Source: Elusimicrobiota bacterium (lineage in GTDB: Bacteria > Elusimicrobiota > Elusimicrobia > FEN-1173). From it: a stretch of DNA of 29,717 nucleotides. A program made the position numbers and the translations under genes. The notes below the pieces were generated by a model. The model had not been told where the DNA came from. It searched no databases and worked only from the letters and a program-made list of their open reading frames with translations. Location: positions 2,041-31,757 of the forward strand of contig PMLF01000345.1 of assembly GCA_003158755.1 (NCBI GenBank), in the 5' to 3' direction. Shown piece after piece: positions 15,054 to 29,717 of the stretch (positions are counted from its first letter, which is position 1; each line of letters opens with the position of its first letter).

Positions 15054-15677
15054 ATGGATACGGTGGAGCTACTTCTAAAGGACACCTTCTTTTGGGCGGC
15101 GGCGGGAGTTTTCCTGCTCAGCTTATCCGTCTTCCTCTGGAGCCTGACGAGATTGCGAACGAAGTCCTCCTCCACGGGAGGAATGCCGTCTCTTTCATCC
15201 CGCGATTTTCCGTCACCGATGAATCCTTCTTCCGTCCCCCGCGACAAAAAGAGCCTTTGGGATTTCCCGCCTCCCGAGCTTCCTCCCGTTTTGCCGCCGG
15301 ACATGGAAGCAACGATGAAGCTCAAAGGGGCCGCCGGAAAACCCCCGGCGCCCACTCCGCCCGACTCTCCCCTTCTTCCTCAACGAGGAGATCCGACGTT
15401 GGTGCTTAGCGTCATGGAAGACAAATTCGCTGAACTGGCGAAACGCATCGCGGCTATTGAGCACCCCAAGAAGGATCAAGCTCCTTCCTATTTGGAACCC
15501 CTACTCAAGCGCGTGCAGGACATGGAATCGGAGTTGAAAAACCTGAAGTTCGCGTTCACACAACTGTCCTCGGCTCAAAACGCCATCAACTTAAACGACC
15601 TCACCGCCAAGATCCAGGGAATGCAGCAGATGATGGAACACCTGACCGGCGGGACGGACGTGTCCAAACCCTCATGA
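15054..15677 (+). CDS. Hypothetical membrane-anchored protein (TM, Pro/Ser-rich linker, coiled coil)
   Basis: TM FFWAAAGVFLLSLSVFLWSL followed by RLRTK; Pro-rich middle; heptad-like C-terminus; ATGA overlap with the next gene. Confidence 0.7.
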   Translation: MDTVELLLKDTFFWAAAGVFLLSLSVFLWSLTRLRTKSSSTGGMPSLSSRDFPSPMNPSSVPRDKKSLWDFPPPELPPVLPPDMEATMKLKGAAGKPPAPTPPDSPLLPQRGDPTLVLSVMEDKFAELAKRIAAIEHPKKDQAPSYLEPLLKRVQDMESELKNLKFAFTQLSSAQNAINLNDLTAKIQGMQQMMEHLTGGTDVSKPS

Positions 15678-24015: not shown

Positions 24016-24768
24016 ATGAAGCTGTTCACTTCACCAAAAATGATCTTCTCCTTCGCCCTTCTCCTCATTTTGATAGGGGCGTGGGTTTATTTATCCAACG
24101 GTCCAAAACGCCAAGCTCCCGCTCCCGTCGGAACCGGCCAAGGGCGCGGCGGCGGCGAAAACGGGGGAGGACCGGCCGGCGGTACCGCGAGCGCGGGACC
24201 ACAAGAGGGCGGTGCGGGAAAATCGGGAAGCGCCGCGTCGACCGAAGGGAAATCCGGAGGAACTCCGTCCGCCGCGAATAAAAATAAGGGGGAGGAAAAA
24301 CCCGCCGCCGGTCAGCCACCGGCGGGACCAGCCCAAAGGGCTCCCGAGGGACCCAAGGGATTCCTCGCCCGATTGATGGATCGCATCCAGGCTTTTTTCG
24401 GAGGGGCCGCGAAAAAATCAGGGTTCTTCCAACGATTGCGTTCCTTGCTCGGCATCGGAGGTCCCTCCGCCGCGTCCGGCGGGGCGAGCGGACCTGGCGG
24501 AGGGGGCCAACCCGGCGAGGAAGGAAAGAAACCCGACCAACCCGGAAAACAGAAACCGGGGGCCCCCCCATCTCCTCAGAACGACGTGGCCCGACAGATC
24601 AAGGAAAATTTGGAACAAACGTTGGAACAACAAAAGATGATGCGCGACATGCAGGAGATCCAACGGCAGAACCTCGAGAACATGAAGATGATGCTTCAAA
24701 CGCAACAACAGTTGAGACAAACGACGGACAACGCGCGGATGACGAGGGAAACGGCGAAAAAACGGTAA
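24016..24768 (+). CDS. Hypothetical membrane-anchored low-complexity protein (Gly/Ala/Pro/Lys-rich, Gln/Met-rich C-terminal coil)
   Basis: N-terminal hydrophobic helix; disordered linker; two amphipathic helices; QQKMMRDMQEIQRQNLENMKMMLQTQQQ tail. Confidence 0.7.
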   Translation: MKLFTSPKMIFSFALLLILIGAWVYLSNGPKRQAPAPVGTGQGRGGGENGGGPAGGTASAGPQEGGAGKSGSAASTEGKSGGTPSAANKNKGEEKPAAGQPPAGPAQRAPEGPKGFLARLMDRIQAFFGGAAKKSGFFQRLRSLLGIGGPSAASGGASGPGGGGQPGEEGKKPDQPGKQKPGAPPSPQNDVARQIKENLEQTLEQQKMMRDMQEIQRQNLENMKMMLQTQQQLRQTTDNARMTRETAKKR

Positions 24769-24858
24769 GACGTTCCGTTCGCCCATCAATATTCCTTCAA
24801 TAGAAACGGCACCCCTCGCTTTGCCCCGAATATATTTTACCGAACAAGGAGTTTCGTC

Positions 24859-26706
24859 ATGCCGCATCCCCGCCTCTCCATCGTCAAGGACGACGGATTT
24901 TTTTCCGAAGACGGACAGAGCTTCATCATCTCGCGACCCGACACCCCGCGTCCCCTGGTGAACGTCATTTCCATGGGGAACTACGGAGTGTCCGTGGCCC
25001 AGACGGGCGCCGGTTCCTCGTGGGCACGACGCCCCTCCGAACCCGTCACCCAAGGATACTCCCGATCCACCCGCGACGCGGGAGGCCGAGCGTTGTACCT
25101 TCGCGACGAACGATCCGCCCGGTCGTGGTCGGTAGGCTGGCAACCCCTGCGGGTCCGGCCGGAATCCTACGAATGCATCCACGGCGTCGGCTATACGTTG
25201 ATCAATTCAAAAACGAACGGCATTCACGCCCAATGGCTGATGTTCGTCCCTTTCGAAGAACCAATGGAAGTGTGGCGCGTGCGGATTAAAAACCAGTCTA
25301 AGAAACCTCGAACCCTGAGCCTCTGGACGGGCATCGACTGGGCCGCCGAACCGGCGTCCGCCGCGGACGAGGCCCTCTTCGTCCGAGACGGAGGGAATAT
25401 CCTCCTGGCCAAGGCCTCCCCCACCGTATCCGGCGGAAGGGGAGAAGGCGTTTTTTTCCACGCCTGCCACCTTCCCACGCGAGCCCACGCCCTGGACCGC
25501 CGGGCCTTGTGGGGAGCCTACGGGTCCTCCGAGCAGCCCGAAGCCCTCATGAAGGGCCGTTACTTGGCCGGCCACGGCGATCCGGAGGCATTCGCCAGCC
25601 TCTGCGTGCCCATCACTTTGAAACCCGGCGAGGAACGGAGCGTCCTTTTCACCATCGGACGCGCCGAGACCCGCAACGAAGGGATCCTCAAAGCTAAGAA
25701 GTTCCAGGATTTCGCGCAGGTGGACCACGCATGGAACCGCAGCCAACTGGTCTGGGACAAGTATCTTTCCTCTTTCACCGTCGATTCCCCCGACAAAGGG
25801 TTCAACCTCCTCACGAACACGTGGTTAAAATACTTGGCGTTGTCGCAAGGCGTGTGGGGAGGGCGGGGTCCGAGGGATACCCGGATTTTCCTTCCCCTGG
25901 AGCCATCCCGAGTTCGGCGTGAAATTTTGAACCGCGCCGGACGGGCCACCCCCGACCACACCCATTTCAATGACGTGCCTTGGCCCGTGCTGTTGCTGGC
26001 TTACCTGCGCGAGACGGGCGACGGTCTTTTACTGGCGGAAAAAATCGCTTCGAAGACAACCGTCTACGAAGCCGCCTTGAAATCGGCCCGCGAGATCGCG
26101 GCTGTCCCGGACGAGGAGGAGGTTGGGAGCTCCCGGTTTTTTTCCGACTGGACGGAAATGACGGCGTGGGCCGTGGAAGAGGATTTCCTCCCGGCCCGGG
26201 AAAAGGAAACCGCCCGAAAACTCCGGGCCGAGGCCGAGAAGCGGCCGGCGGCGTCCGGGAAAAACAATGGATCCGCCGACTCCGTTCGGGCGTTGGAAAA
26301 CGCTTGCCGCCGTGGCCTCGCCCAAGAGGCGTGTGACATCTACCGCCGCCTGGCTCCCCCGCCCGTCCGAGGCGTTCCGCCGTTCCTCTTCGCCCCGGAG
26401 ACGTCGGATTCCGGAGCGTTTTCCCCGGCCGCGCTCTTCCGCGCCTGCACCGAGGGAATCCTCGGTCTCCAGCCGGAATGGGGCGGCCTCCGCGTGCGCC
26501 CTTGCCTACCTCCGGGTTGGCGATCGGCGGAGGTCCGGCGGGAATTCCGCGGGACTCTCTTTTCCTTTCGTTTCCGCCGGAAGGCCTCCAAACCGGCGGG
26601 GTTCCAGGAAATCCTCTTGAACGGGAAAATTATTAAGGGAGACGTTTTACCGGAAATACTCGACCGCAAAGCCGACGTGGTCGTCACCGTGGGTCGAGCC
26701 CGATGA
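24859..26706 (+). CDS. GH94 (cellobiose/chitobiose phosphorylase)-like protein with a shortened, degenerate catalytic domain
   Basis: AAGGAG SD; GH94-type N-terminus (PDTPRPLVNVISMGNYG, GRALYLRDE, YECIHGVGYT); linker VDSPDKGFNLLTNTWLKY; C-terminal EGILGL..RPCLPPGW. Only 615 aa. Confidence 0.75.
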   Translation: MPHPRLSIVKDDGFFSEDGQSFIISRPDTPRPLVNVISMGNYGVSVAQTGAGSSWARRPSEPVTQGYSRSTRDAGGRALYLRDERSARSWSVGWQPLRVRPESYECIHGVGYTLINSKTNGIHAQWLMFVPFEEPMEVWRVRIKNQSKKPRTLSLWTGIDWAAEPASAADEALFVRDGGNILLAKASPTVSGGRGEGVFFHACHLPTRAHALDRRALWGAYGSSEQPEALMKGRYLAGHGDPEAFASLCVPITLKPGEERSVLFTIGRAETRNEGILKAKKFQDFAQVDHAWNRSQLVWDKYLSSFTVDSPDKGFNLLTNTWLKYLALSQGVWGGRGPRDTRIFLPLEPSRVRREILNRAGRATPDHTHFNDVPWPVLLLAYLRETGDGLLLAEKIASKTTVYEAALKSAREIAAVPDEEEVGSSRFFSDWTEMTAWAVEEDFLPAREKETARKLRAEAEKRPAASGKNNGSADSVRALENACRRGLAQEACDIYRRLAPPPVRGVPPFLFAPETSDSGAFSPAALFRACTEGILGLQPEWGGLRVRPCLPPGWRSAEVRREFRGTLFSFRFRRKASKPAGFQEILLNGKIIKGDVLPEILDRKADVVVTVGRAR

Positions 26707-27881
26707 AGTTTTCCGACCTTCCAAAACCCTCGGAGGAACCAAGGCCCGCGGGAACCGCCGCGCCGCTTTCGGAAAAAAGCTCCCTTCCTCCGACGGCCTC
26801 GGATCCTTTCAAGGAACTTGAGGAAAAAGAATCCGCTTCAAAACCCGTTAAATCGCTTTCCGCCGCTCCTCCTCCGGCGGAGGAAACGGCGGAAGAATTC
26901 GACCGGAAGGTCCGCGAGGAGTCCCTCCAAGCCACGGAAGTGTATTCCGAGGCGGTTTCGGCGGCGCGCCAGATTTACCGGGCGCTTGAAAAACCTCTGG
27001 AGGTGGAGGGACTCGAAATCCCCCACGAAGCGCTCCGCAAGCTCATGGCCGTGGTGCGCTCGGACAACCAGGAGATTTTGATCCTGGCGGACCGGTCCGC
27101 CCCCGACAATTATTTGTACGGCCACGTGGTCAACGTGGCCGTCTTCAGCCTGCGCCTCGGCCTGAGCGTGGGCCTGACCGAAGAGGAAATGTTGACCGTG
27201 GCCGCGGGAGCCTTCCTTCACGACATCGGCATGATCCCTTATCTTCCGATGGTCCTCCGGCCCACGCGGCTGTCGGAGGACGAATTAAAGCAAGTCCAGC
27301 GACACTCGGAGGAAGGCGCGCAGCTCCTCACCAAGTTCCCGTCCCTCCAAGGGCGCGACTTGGAGGTCGTCTCCTCCATCGTCGTCCAAGTGCATGAACG
27401 CATGGAGGGAATGGGGTATCCCCAGGCCCTGGGACAAGACGCCATCCACCGCTTGGCCAAGCTCGTCGGAGTCTGCGACATGTACGAGTCCCTGACCCAC
27501 ATGCGCGCCTGGCGGTCGCGGCTTTTGCCCCACCACGTCCTGAGGGTTATGATCGAGGAACACGAGCGCACCTTCGAGCCGGGGCTCGTGAAGTCCCTGG
27601 TCGAGGCGTTATCCCTTTATCCGCCCGGATCCTTCGTCCGGCTTTCATCGGGCGACATCGGGCGCGTGGTGGCCGTCAACCACGGTCTCCCGACCCGTCC
27701 GATCGTGAAAGTGTTGGTGGACGCCCAGGGCCAGCGCGTGGCGGCTCCCAAGGTCGTCAACCTGGCGACCCACCCCATCCTGTACGTTTCGGACGCCGTC
27801 GATGAGACCAAGCTGCCCACGTCGGACCAGCGCCTTCTGCTGGAACTTCGCGCGCAACGATGGTGGGTGCGCGGTTTCTGA
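26703..27881 (+). CDS. HD-GYP domain protein (atypical metal site) with a C-terminal extension
   Basis: YLYGHVVNV, LHDIGM, HSEEG, QVHERMEGMGYP and CDMYESL motifs, YPPGSFVRLSSG extension; ATGA overlap with the GH94-like gene. Confidence 0.88.
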   Translation: MKFSDLPKPSEEPRPAGTAAPLSEKSSLPPTASDPFKELEEKESASKPVKSLSAAPPPAEETAEEFDRKVREESLQATEVYSEAVSAARQIYRALEKPLEVEGLEIPHEALRKLMAVVRSDNQEILILADRSAPDNYLYGHVVNVAVFSLRLGLSVGLTEEEMLTVAAGAFLHDIGMIPYLPMVLRPTRLSEDELKQVQRHSEEGAQLLTKFPSLQGRDLEVVSSIVVQVHERMEGMGYPQALGQDAIHRLAKLVGVCDMYESLTHMRAWRSRLLPHHVLRVMIEEHERTFEPGLVKSLVEALSLYPPGSFVRLSSGDIGRVVAVNHGLPTRPIVKVLVDAQGQRVAAPKVVNLATHPILYVSDAVDETKLPTSDQRLLLELRAQRWWVRGF

Positions 27882-27887
27882 TATAAT
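27879..27887 (+). promoter_or_regulatory. Consensus extended -10 promoter for nspC
   Basis: TG-A-TATAAT overlapping the HD-GYP stop codon; ATG at 27922. Confidence 0.65.
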
Positions 27888-27921: not shown

Positions 27922-29073
27922 ATGCCGTCCGCCGAGGATTCCATTCATGAGATCGCCCTGAAAAACCGGGGCTCCCTGCCGACGCCCTATTACCTCGTCG
28001 ATGAAAATCGCCTTCTCCTAAACTTAGAGAAAATTAAAAAAGTCCGGGAAACGTCCGGGGCGAAATCCGTTTTAGCGCTCAAATGCTTTTCGACTTGGAG
28101 CGTTTTCGACCTGATGCGGGAGTACATGGACGGGACCACCAGCAGTTCCCTCTACGAAGCGCGGCTGGGACGGGAAAAGTTCGGCAAGGAAGTCCACGCC
28201 TACAGCGTCGGTTATTCCGACGGGGACGTCGACGCCTTGCGCGGGATCGCCACCAAGGTGATCTTCAATTCGGTGTCCCAACTCAAACGGTTCCATCCGA
28301 AAGTCAAAGGACTTCCGTTGGGGCTGCGCATCAACCCGGGCGTGAGCTTTTCCGATTTCGAATTGGCGGACCCGGCCCGGCCCCACTCGCGCCTGGGCGC
28401 GGCGGACTTCGACGAAGCGATGGAAGCGTCCTCCCTGATCAACGGCGTCATGTTCCACTGCCAATGCGAAAACGACGATTTCGCCCGTTTCTCCTCCCTC
28501 CTGGACCATATCTCTGAAAAATACGGATCTCTGTTGGAAAAAATGGATTGGGTGAGCCTGGGAGGAGGGATTTACTTCACGAAAGAGAACTACCCGCTGG
28601 ACGCCTTCTGCGGCAAGCTCTCGGACTTCGCCCGGCGGTTCGACGTCCAGGTGTACCTGGAACCGGGGGAAACCGCCGTCACCCGCTCCGGATTCCTGGT
28701 CACCGAAATAGTGGACATCGTCCGCAACGGGGCGGACATCGCCGTCGTCGACGCGGGGGTGGAGCCCCACCTGCTGGATTCTCTGATCTATCGAACGAAC
28801 GCGAAGATGGACCTCCCCGGAGGAGGCGCCCACACCTACATGGTGGCCGGTCGCACCTGCCTGGCGGGGGACGTGTTCGGGACCTACGCGTTCCCCGGAA
28901 AACTCAGCGTCGGGGATCTCGTCGTATTCGCCGATGCGGCGGGTTACACCATGGTCAAAAAGAATTGGTTCAACGGCATCCAGATGCCGTCCATCGTCGT
29001 GCGGCGTCTGGATGGGAAGATGGACGTCGTCCGTCGGTTCACCTACGAAGACTACCTGGAAAATTTGTCTTGA
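27922..29073 (+). CDS. nspC: Carboxynorspermidine decarboxylase
   Basis: PTPYYLVDE, VLALKCF (PLP Lys), TTSSSLYEARLG, SLGGGIYFT, YLEPGE and TCLAGDVFG motifs; adjacent to the partner dehydrogenase. Confidence 0.92.
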   Translation: MPSAEDSIHEIALKNRGSLPTPYYLVDENRLLLNLEKIKKVRETSGAKSVLALKCFSTWSVFDLMREYMDGTTSSSLYEARLGREKFGKEVHAYSVGYSDGDVDALRGIATKVIFNSVSQLKRFHPKVKGLPLGLRINPGVSFSDFELADPARPHSRLGAADFDEAMEASSLINGVMFHCQCENDDFARFSSLLDHISEKYGSLLEKMDWVSLGGGIYFTKENYPLDAFCGKLSDFARRFDVQVYLEPGETAVTRSGFLVTEIVDIVRNGADIAVVDAGVEPHLLDSLIYRTNAKMDLPGGGAHTYMVAGRTCLAGDVFGTYAFPGKLSVGDLVVFADAAGYTMVKKNWFNGIQMPSIVVRRLDGKMDVVRRFTYEDYLENLS

Positions 29074-29089
29074 AGAGAGGGGGAAAACC

Positions 29090-29717
29090 GTGAAAAAAAA
29101 CGTTCTCATCGTCGGGGCGGGCGGAGTGGCCAACGTGGCGGCCCATAAGTGCGCCCAAAACAACCACGTCTTGGGCGACATTTGCATCGCGTCGAGAAAG
29201 CAGGAGAAGTGCGAAAAAATCATCGATAGCATCCGGCGGAAGAACAACGCCAAGGACCCGTCGAAAAAAATCCATTCACGGCAGATCGACGCTTTGGACG
29301 TCCCCGCGTTGTCCAAGCTCATTGAAGAGACCAAGTCCGGGATCGTCATCAACTTGGGGGCGGCGTTCATCAACATGTCGGTGCTGGAGGCGTGCCTCAA
29401 CACCGGCGCCGCGTATTTGGACACCGCCATCCACGAGGACCCGGCGAAGGTGTGCGAGGACCCTCCCTGGTATGCCAACTACGAGTGGAAGCGACTGGAC
29501 CGCTGCAAGGAAAAAGGCGTGACGGCCATCCTGGGCGTCGGGTTCGACCCCGGCGTCGTGAACGCTTTCTGCGCCGCGGCGGTGAAGCACCACTTCGACA
29601 AGATCGACACCATCGACATCATGGACGTCAACGCCGGCAATCACGGCAAGTTCTTCGCGACGAACTTCGACCCGGAAATTAATTTTCGGGAATTCACGAA
29701 GGTATGGACCTACATCG
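29090..29717 (+). CDS. Carboxynorspermidine/carboxyspermidine dehydrogenase (saccharopine dehydrogenase family), partial; runs off the window end and is missing from the ORF track
   Basis: GAGGGGG SD and GTG at 29090: MKKNVLIVGAGGVANVAAHKCAQN...YLDTAIHED...LGVGFDPGVVN...ATNFDPEINFREF. Confidence 0.9.
   Translation, partial: MKKNVLIVGAGGVANVAAHKCAQNNHVLGDICIASRKQEKCEKIIDSIRRKNNAKDPSKKIHSRQIDALDVPALSKLIEETKSGIVINLGAAFINMSVLEACLNTGAAYLDTAIHEDPAKVCEDPPWYANYEWKRLDRCKEKGVTAILGVGFDPGVVNAFCAAAVKHHFDKIDTIDIMDVNAGNHGKFFATNFDPEINFREFTKVWTYI

Follow-up and report, generated by a model that had tools for sequence, protein, structure and literature searches.

Glycoside phosphorylases of family GH94 share an order of domains: an N-terminal supersandwich, a helical linker, a helical core and a C-terminal beta-sandwich. 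In the cellobiose phosphorylase of C. gilvus, Asp490 serves as the catalytic acid, the phosphate site comprises Arg351, His666, Thr731 and Gly732, and the sugar site comprises Arg367, Asp368, Trp488, Tyr653, Glu659, Asn660 and Phe664 (PMC5501786). Among HD-GYP proteins, the activity of PmGH, from Persephonella marina, is abolished by H276A and by K225A, and a Y/F subgroup without Glu185 makes up a natural branch within the family (PMC4159591). Another HD-GYP protein, DvhD from Desulfovibrio vulgaris (9RBZ), is a receptor that binds cyclic di-GMP (c-di-GMP) with neither metals nor turnover (PMC13090378). Here we analyze a 29,717-nucleotide stretch of contig PMLF01000345.1 from an Elusimicrobiota bacterium (assembly GCA_003158755.1), which we call the window, and in which a gene for a GH94-like protein (P0001) overlaps the start of a gene for an HD-GYP protein (P0002). 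The first-pass annotation of this window, made from its sequence alone, proposed that both proteins are probably pseudoenzymes and that they form a sugar-sensing signaling complex, which might control a nearby export operon. We find that the pairing of the two genes is real and tight. No description of it was found in the literature searched, which yielded neither a GH94 protein or cellobiose phosphorylase paired with an HD-GYP protein nor a GH94 pseudoenzyme.

The first gene of the pair occupies positions 24859-26706 (features lie on the plus strand unless otherwise stated) and encodes 615 amino acids. Its assignment as a GH94-like pseudo-phosphorylase draws on the open reading frame (ORF), Pfam, an AlphaFold2 (AF2) model, Foldseek and substitution rates. 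A strong Shine-Dalgarno-like AAGGAG, read in the sequence at 24846-24851, lies 7 nucleotides 5' of its ATG. The best-conserved part of the protein is the N-terminal beta-supersandwich (residues ~13-290; 24895-25728), with strands E21-E269 in the AF2 model; residues 30-267 match the whole of the Pfam profile for the GH94 N-terminal supersandwich (PF06165, E-value 3.7e-49). The (alpha/alpha)6 barrel is reduced to a remnant of ~9 helices (residues ~305-535; 25771-26463) that has lost its catalytic and binding motifs to deletion. Only positions 2-36 of the 420 in the barrel profile PF17167 match P0001, below the cut-off, so a complete barrel is not found. With phmmer, the C-terminal beta-sandwich (residues ~536-615; 26464-26703) matches the corresponding domains in GH94 structures.

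Homologs of P0001 that are similarly short form seven clusters of 584-626 amino acids, with 56-62% identity; we call these short forms. Longer homologs in Elusimicrobiota have 786-848 amino acids and ~40-45% identity, and cover 64-76% of P0001. Among the short forms, the mean identity is 69% for the N-terminal domain, and the identity is 61% for the C-terminal domain. In alignments, all eight short forms share identical internal deletions, which, in the numbering of the full-length homolog P0013, remove residues 356-368 (YYQxGGAYGFRDQ), 395-408, 478-500 (which holds DWND), 559-645 (87 residues), 649-652 (in the ENGG region), 693-698 and 706-718 (just N-terminal to TGSA). These seven barrel deletions sum to ~160 residues, and four smaller ones bring the total loss to ~190. 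The segment with the catalytic acid (Asp490 in DWND, together with Trp488) is deleted in 8 of 8 short forms, the ENGG...FH segment is also deleted, and the TG of TGSA is gone. By motif-level alignment, ~9 of the 12 catalytic, phosphate and sugar residues are deleted or replaced; the survivors in P0001 are R339-D340, which correspond to Arg367/Asp368, and possibly an equivalent of Arg351. We predict that P0001 lacks phosphorolytic activity on beta-linked disaccharides.

Although half of its catalytic barrel is gone, P0001 is predicted to fold and is kept by selection. Its AF2 model is compact, with the supersandwich, ~9 helices and the C-terminal beta-sandwich, and it scores well, the caveat being that full-length homologs dominate the input alignment (predicted local distance difference test, pLDDT, 89.2; predicted template-modeling score, pTM, 0.91). 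The top Foldseek matches are cellobiose and chitobiose phosphorylases, with template-modeling (TM) scores of 0.79-0.81 by query and ~0.62 by target. For the unsaturated pair L001/L047 (dS 0.28), the ratio of nonsynonymous to synonymous substitution rates (dN/dS, or omega) is 0.22 overall, with values of 0.16 in the N-terminal domain, 0.29 in the barrel remnant and 0.15 in the C-terminal domain. Because the ratio is low in every domain, the gene is maintained by selection, and is neither decaying nor a mere spacer. The possibility of a recent pseudogene was considered and excluded, given eight lineages free of frameshifts and stops and an omega of 0.22. Judged by its sequence and its predicted structure, P0001 is a genuine GH94-derived pseudoenzyme with a stable fold, under purifying selection.

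Most full-length members of the orthogroup have intact catalytic motifs. The motifs are decayed in P0011 (locus L010), in the GH94 orthologs of genomes G386 and G262 and in P0018, and they are partly decayed in P0023. In the GH94 tree, the short clade has a support of 100/100, and the decayed full-length forms of G386, P0011 and G262 group with it (98/94); catalysis was therefore probably lost first, and the barrel deletions probably came later, with the caveat that fast-evolving rows in this tree could be subject to long-branch attraction. Intact, point-decayed and deleted stages of the GH94 protein are all visible in living relatives. We also observed that DWND, ENGG and TGSA are mutated or lost to differing degrees in the decayed full-length orthologs of this family, whose ORFs are still intact (L050:2440-4878 in G386, L051:6592-8880 in G262, L010:1959-4340, P0018, P0023 and P0010), so that catalytic decay is recurrent in the orthogroup. 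At locus L008, both partners are decaying together: the GH94 protein P0010 (L008:5694-8240) has DGND for DWND, and the HD-GYP protein P0118 (L008:8263-9396) has lost GYP (GGGEA) as well as two residues of the ligand region.

The second gene (26703-27881) encodes P0002, a non-canonical HD-GYP protein of 392 amino acids, and was characterized from its ORF, Pfam (HD_5, E-value 9e-20, and also HD), AF2 and Foldseek. In its model (pLDDT 88.1, pTM 0.84), a disordered N-terminus (residues 1-60) and a long helix (63-95) are followed by the HD-GYP domain (residues ~108-303; 27024-27611), as delimited by alignment to 4mcw and column counts. The remainder is a C-terminal domain of five beta strands (E311-E366) with a terminal helix (H376-384), encoded by 27615-27878; this appendage is found on other HD-GYP families too. 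The metal ligands of PmGH are Glu185, His189, His221, Asp222, His250, His276, His277 and Asp305, and P0002 does not have the full set. It keeps six of the eight, namely H141, H173-D174, H201, H231 and D259, with Y137 in place of Glu185 and V230 in place of His276 (the first His of HHE); Lys225 of the HDxGK motif is replaced by M177. The equivalent of Asp183 and the GYP motif are also kept, the latter as G236 and G238-Y239-P240.

Of 401 genomes of the phylum, 88 hold an ortholog of P0002 (E <= 1e-40), and the wider subfamily has 1,182 representatives at E <= 1e-30, the best 150 of which were used for column counts. The HD dyad is kept in 37 of 38 Elusimicrobiota orthologs and GYP in 32-35 of the 38. 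R268 and R271, at the positions of Arg314/Lys317 in PmGH, are present in all 38 orthologs, and in 146 and 141 of the 150 representatives, respectively. For the ligands that P0002 retains (H141, H173, D174, H201, H231 and D259), conservation among these representatives is 85-95%. The position of Lys225 is Met, Leu or Ile in 139 of them, and that of His276 is free to vary, being His in 44 and otherwise Glu, Val, Ile or Thr. Since the substitutions in P0002 are common to the 38 orthologs and the subfamily, they do not reflect local decay, and the idea of a locally degenerate copy was excluded. A GH94-specific adaptation of the N-terminus was excluded as well, given that the MKFSD motif and the linker also occur in families that lack GH94.

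The conserved residues show P0002 to be a non-canonical member of a large and conserved HD-GYP subfamily. They indicate that its metal site is probably a two-metal site, and leave catalytic activity at about an even chance; its status as a pseudoenzyme is unproven. The proposal of two pseudoenzymes therefore stands for the GH94-like protein, whose catalytic core is deleted, but not for P0002, which keeps most metal ligands and belongs to a conserved subfamily. A separate observation concerns the C-terminal tail, LRAQRWWV(R/K)G (residues 376-392; 27828-27878), which is invariant in the family, has an RWW that is recognizable throughout the subfamily, and is better conserved than the catalytic region. 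Some HD-GYP orthologs that have lost GYP or ligands still carry this tail.

The two genes are joined by an ATGA stop/start overlap at 26703-26706, as would allow translational coupling. A single overlap of this kind is commonplace in compact genomes and means little by itself. The window sequence confirms the overlap reported in the first-pass annotation, and the same junction recurs in L001, L002, L005 and L047, with dS >1 for most pairs; counting the window, it is present in all five short-form lineages for which DNA is available. Two further contigs have a 4-nucleotide overlap in gene calls, and overall the orthologous HD-GYP gene is directly 3' with this overlap in 7 of 7 short-form lineages examined. 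The retention of the junction across diverged short-form lineages is beyond chance. Full-length GH94 genes also lie directly 5' of the orthologous HD-GYP gene, in at least eight cases (L007 in G170, L008/L009, L010, L011, G350, G124, G062 and G104), with a spacing of 11-58 nucleotides, in contrast to the fixed ATGA of the short forms. Among the loci checked, a GH94 gene is 5' of this HD-GYP gene only in the window's own family. In the HD-GYP tree, all GH94-linked genes fall into one clade (100/99), as would be expected from a single acquisition and later losses. This tree and the GH94 tree agree in placing the short clade with G386 and L010. Conservation of the neighborhood, which had been suggested as a check, is seen in the seven short-form lineages and the full-length cases; in G307 and G386 the two genes are unlinked, and no GH94 gene adjoins the HD-GYP gene in G372 or at any of the loci checked outside the window's family.

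We tentatively interpret the pair, with somewhat less than even confidence, as a non-catalytic GH94 remnant that is made in a fixed ratio with an HD-GYP protein that binds c-di-GMP, and that acts on it. The first gene descends from that of a full-length GH94 glycoside phosphorylase, which lost ~200 barrel residues, probably after it had lost catalysis. In the proposed scheme, ribosomes that finish the remnant would restart on the HD-GYP gene at the ATGA, giving the fixed ratio. The remnant might then act non-catalytically, as a scaffold or regulatory partner, on an HD-GYP protein that may bind c-di-GMP or a related nucleotide, or hydrolyze it slowly, in signaling related to the envelope or polysaccharides. 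This interpretation draws support from the shared deletions, retained fold, purifying selection, conserved adjacency and congruent trees, and, on the HD-GYP side, from the conserved ligand and binding residues and the precedent of DvhD. With at least 10 matches to GGDEF and 4 to HD_5, the source genome holds the c-di-GMP machinery that the interpretation needs. A number of findings weigh against it. Both genes are present and unlinked in G307 and G386, where the GH94 gene precedes a REC-GAF regulator or MoxR/DUF58, and two further genomes, G372 (of the window's family) and G230, have the HD-GYP gene only. Decayed GH94 orthologs persist apart from the HD-GYP gene in G386 and in G262 (the latter has GH94 only), which means that the function of the remnant need not involve HD-GYP. 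None of 20 loci from other families has a GH94 gene upstream of the HD-GYP gene, and the best 150 representatives include no fusion of GH94 with HD-GYP. In the HD-GYP protein, the N-terminal motif and the linker are ancestral and predate the association with GH94. The operon adjacency could accordingly be a matter of inherited history. This is the core of the main rival explanation, under which the remnant has a non-catalytic function of its own (e.g., structural, or glycan binding via its beta domains), and the HD-GYP protein works solo. We regard this rival as a real possibility, though a doubtful one: the unlinked, solitary and unfused genes just listed are in its favor, while the exact 4-nucleotide overlap in every short form examined, at dS >1 for most pairs, counts against it, as does the fact that the pair stays together while its 3' neighbors change (nspC or an ABC transporter).

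It is very improbable that the short ORF is a mere upstream frame that drives translation of the HD-GYP gene, or an enzyme with a new activity. The conserved ATGA coupling would suit an upstream frame, but an omega of 0.15-0.29 in every domain and a confidently predicted fold are unexpected in a spacer, and a new activity is unlikely in a protein that is stripped of every known catalytic residue and of half its barrel. A different alternative is that only the GH94 partner is dead, and that P0002 is a fully active two-metal phosphodiesterase, possibly acting on pGpG or another nucleotide. To us this is nearly an even call. The six ligands are well kept in the subfamily, P0002 falls in the Y/F subgroup (PMC4159591), and the free variation at position 230 suggests that a ligand is dispensable there. 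However, H276A and K225A inactivate PmGH (PMC4159591), the Lys is replaced in 139 of the 150 subfamily members, and some orthologs retain the C-terminal tail after losing GYP or ligands. The first-pass annotation had favored a third idea, in which the pseudo-phosphorylase senses sugars and passes the carbohydrate status on to the HD-GYP protein, which in turn might control the CBM48-Wza-Wzc operon. We consider this unlikely. Control of exopolysaccharides by c-di-GMP is well established, the window encodes a PMT_2 glycosyltransferase and a DegT aminotransferase as well, and in G386 (locus L015) the HD-GYP gene adjoins CBM48, Wza and an ortholog of the window gene at 15054-15677. Against this, the pocket that would sense a sugar (the equivalents of Trp488, Asp490, Glu659, Asn660, His666 and Thr731) is deleted or replaced, which leaves the sugar-sensing role unsupported, and a CBM48 ortholog is present in 15 of 15 genomes of the family whatever their GH94/HD-GYP state, and is mostly distant. 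Similarly improbable is the proposal that the gutted GH94 protein is an obligate, non-catalytic subunit of a c-di-GMP effector, docking via its beta domains and half barrel on the HD-GYP protein or its RAQRWWV domain and gating nucleotide binding, so that the two together would control CBM48-Wza-Wzc export. An obligate complex is not indicated, since the HD-GYP gene occurs phylum-wide without GH94 and the genes are unlinked in two family genomes. If this proposal were true, the pair would be a signaling module built from a retired phosphorylase.

With regard to the export operon, the universality of the CBM48 marker in the family makes phyletic profiling uninformative, and the profiling that had been suggested against this operon accordingly gave no correlation. 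In 7 of 9 genomes, the CBM48 ortholog lies 42-360 kilobases from the HD-GYP gene or on another contig. In G386 (L015:1015-7185; G386:C372), the order is the Gly-rich membrane protein, HD-GYP, the 15054-15677 ortholog, CBM48 and Wza, with the last three genes following the HD-GYP gene within 140 nucleotides; a 481-amino-acid protein with no Pfam match follows Wza, where the window has a Wzc-like ATPase. In the HD-GYP tree, the short clade has G386 as its sister, and the two also group together in the GH94 tree. Given its gene order and sister position, it is plausible that the envelope/polysaccharide locus was ancestrally contiguous. The evidence linking the CBM48-Wza operon to the pair is nevertheless weak, and its control by the pair is still speculative.

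The pair has a conserved 5' neighbor, a gene for a membrane-anchored protein of 250 amino acids (24016-24768). This protein has a long Gly/Ala/Pro-rich region, a short GFLxRL motif and a Gln-rich C-terminal coiled coil, and it has no match in Pfam or NCBIfam. Its orthologs are 5' of the short GH94 gene in L001, L002 and L047, and directly 5' of the HD-GYP gene in L015, where GH94 is absent. On the 3' side, the window has nspC, encoding carboxynorspermidine decarboxylase (27922-29073; NCBIfam TIGR01047, E-value 3e-122), followed by a gene of the saccharopine-dehydrogenase family, the two spanning 27922-29717. The position of the latter gene after nspC suggests that it is probably carboxynorspermidine dehydrogenase. 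The nspC neighbor also occurs in L001; the contigs of L002/L003, L005, P0009 and P0007 have instead an ABC transporter (ABC_tran and ABC2_membrane) 3' of the pair, which was counted in five short-form lineages. Cross-talk between polyamines and c-di-GMP is known in Vibrio.

It had been proposed that the next unit has a separate promoter and that the pair is its own module. What lies directly after the P0002 stop is a lone TATAAT hexamer (27882-27887), for which the two-hexamer scan makes no promoter call, and no terminator-like site was found between the genes. As nspC starts only 40 nucleotides 3' of the P0002 gene and has the same orientation, it could well share a transcript with the pair. 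In light of these observations, the end of the transcription unit after P0002 is unproven. The pair is thus a conserved, tightly coupled unit in relatives, but its boundary as a module is not established. Positions 25107-25420, inside the GH94-like gene, have an identical counterpart in a 314-nucleotide contig from a peat metatranscriptome (run X20). This contig is weak evidence that the gene is transcribed, as DNA carry-over is possible, and one short contig in one metatranscriptome cannot show co-transcription of the pair.

The window as a whole begins with genes for a periplasmic binding protein, a TonB receptor, a release factor, a Clp ATPase, TamB and BamA. These are followed by a protein of 207 amino acids (15054-15677), the CBM48 protein, Wza and the Wzc-like ATPase, then by the PMT_2 glycosyltransferase and a Memo-like protein, both on the minus strand. 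The DegT aminotransferase, the 250-amino-acid Gly-rich protein, the pair, nspC and the saccharopine-dehydrogenase-family gene complete the order. The source genome is a metagenome-assembled genome (MAG) of 2.65 megabases that is 85% complete. Those related contigs that have titles all come from Elusimicrobia/Elusimicrobiota MAGs, and the window sequence recurs in metagenomes from peat, bog and permafrost. Outside the window, the source genome has an open frame of 2,860 amino acids with two GH94 supersandwich domains (G000:C336:1537-3966), which resembles cyclic beta-1,2-glucan synthase, and further GH94-domain matches on contigs C271 and C27.

Other families of the phylum offer a different view of the HD-GYP gene. 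Its usual 3' neighbor phylum-wide encodes an HprK-related/ScmC-like protein of ~270 amino acids (atlas score 0.97), with weak NCBIfam matches to HprK_rel_A/B and ScmC; examples are L012:5521-8736, L013:2004-2897, L014:5520-6359 and L028-L046. After this gene there often come a radical SAM/SPASM gene, a methyltransferase and an ABC transporter (in L012, an ABC ATPase), and the L012-type neighborhood looks like a peptide-maturation cassette beside a c-di-GMP-type protein. We considered whether the conserved 3' neighbor of the HD-GYP gene could provide a clue, and rejected this, as the other families show the HprK-related/ScmC-like gene and nothing related to sugars. The source genome yielded no HprK-like gene and no copy of the usual ABC-2 permease, but at 85% completeness their absence is not established. 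Rosetta-stone fusions were also rejected as a source of clues: the ten longest matches to the HD-GYP protein add HD, AAA_22, REC or DUF3391, or no further Pfam domain.

The series of intact, decayed and deleted forms amounts to a natural experiment on a non-catalytic role of the GH94 scaffold. The pair also provides a handle on a large, uncharacterized HD-GYP subfamily, which is marked by Tyr for the Glu ligand, HDxG-Met, THxRxxR and the C-terminal beta domain. If the two proteins interact, they would represent a new coupling of a carbohydrate-enzyme fold to cyclic-dinucleotide signaling, in a poorly studied phylum of peat and permafrost. Otherwise, the locus is an ordinary inherited operon with one interesting relic.

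Finally, we compare the pair with known systems. The order of domains in P0001 matches that of the GH94 phosphorylases of C. thermocellum (3QDE/8HO7), V. proteolyticus (1V7V) and C. gilvus (2CQS), with phmmer E-values of 1e-48 to 1e-27 to GH94 phosphorylase structures. Unlike these enzymes, P0001 is missing ~200 barrel residues, DWND, ENGG, the His/Thr-Gly phosphate site and most sugar contacts. The full-length GH94 proteins of Elusimicrobiota, such as P0013, belong to the same orthogroup and have the same place 5' of HD-GYP, but most of them retain all catalytic motifs. In glycoside-hydrolase pseudoenzymes such as the chitinase-like lectins, a glycosidase fold outlives catalysis; these proteins usually lose a residue or two and keep the binding groove, whereas in P0001 the pocket itself is excised. 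For P0002, the top Foldseek matches are DvhD, PmGH, Bd1817 and PA4781, of which DvhD is the best. With PmGH (4MCW), a c-di-GMP phosphodiesterase, P0002 shares the fold, the HD dyad, GYP and the equivalents of Arg314/Lys317, but it has no GAF domain and carries an additional beta domain at the C-terminus, with the RAQRWWV tail. DvhD and the inactive Bd1817 (3TM8) illustrate that an HD-GYP domain with an incomplete metal site can serve as a receptor. DvhD, however, is a membrane PAS receptor that has lost the HD dyad and binds no metal, while P0002 is soluble and keeps HD and six ligands.

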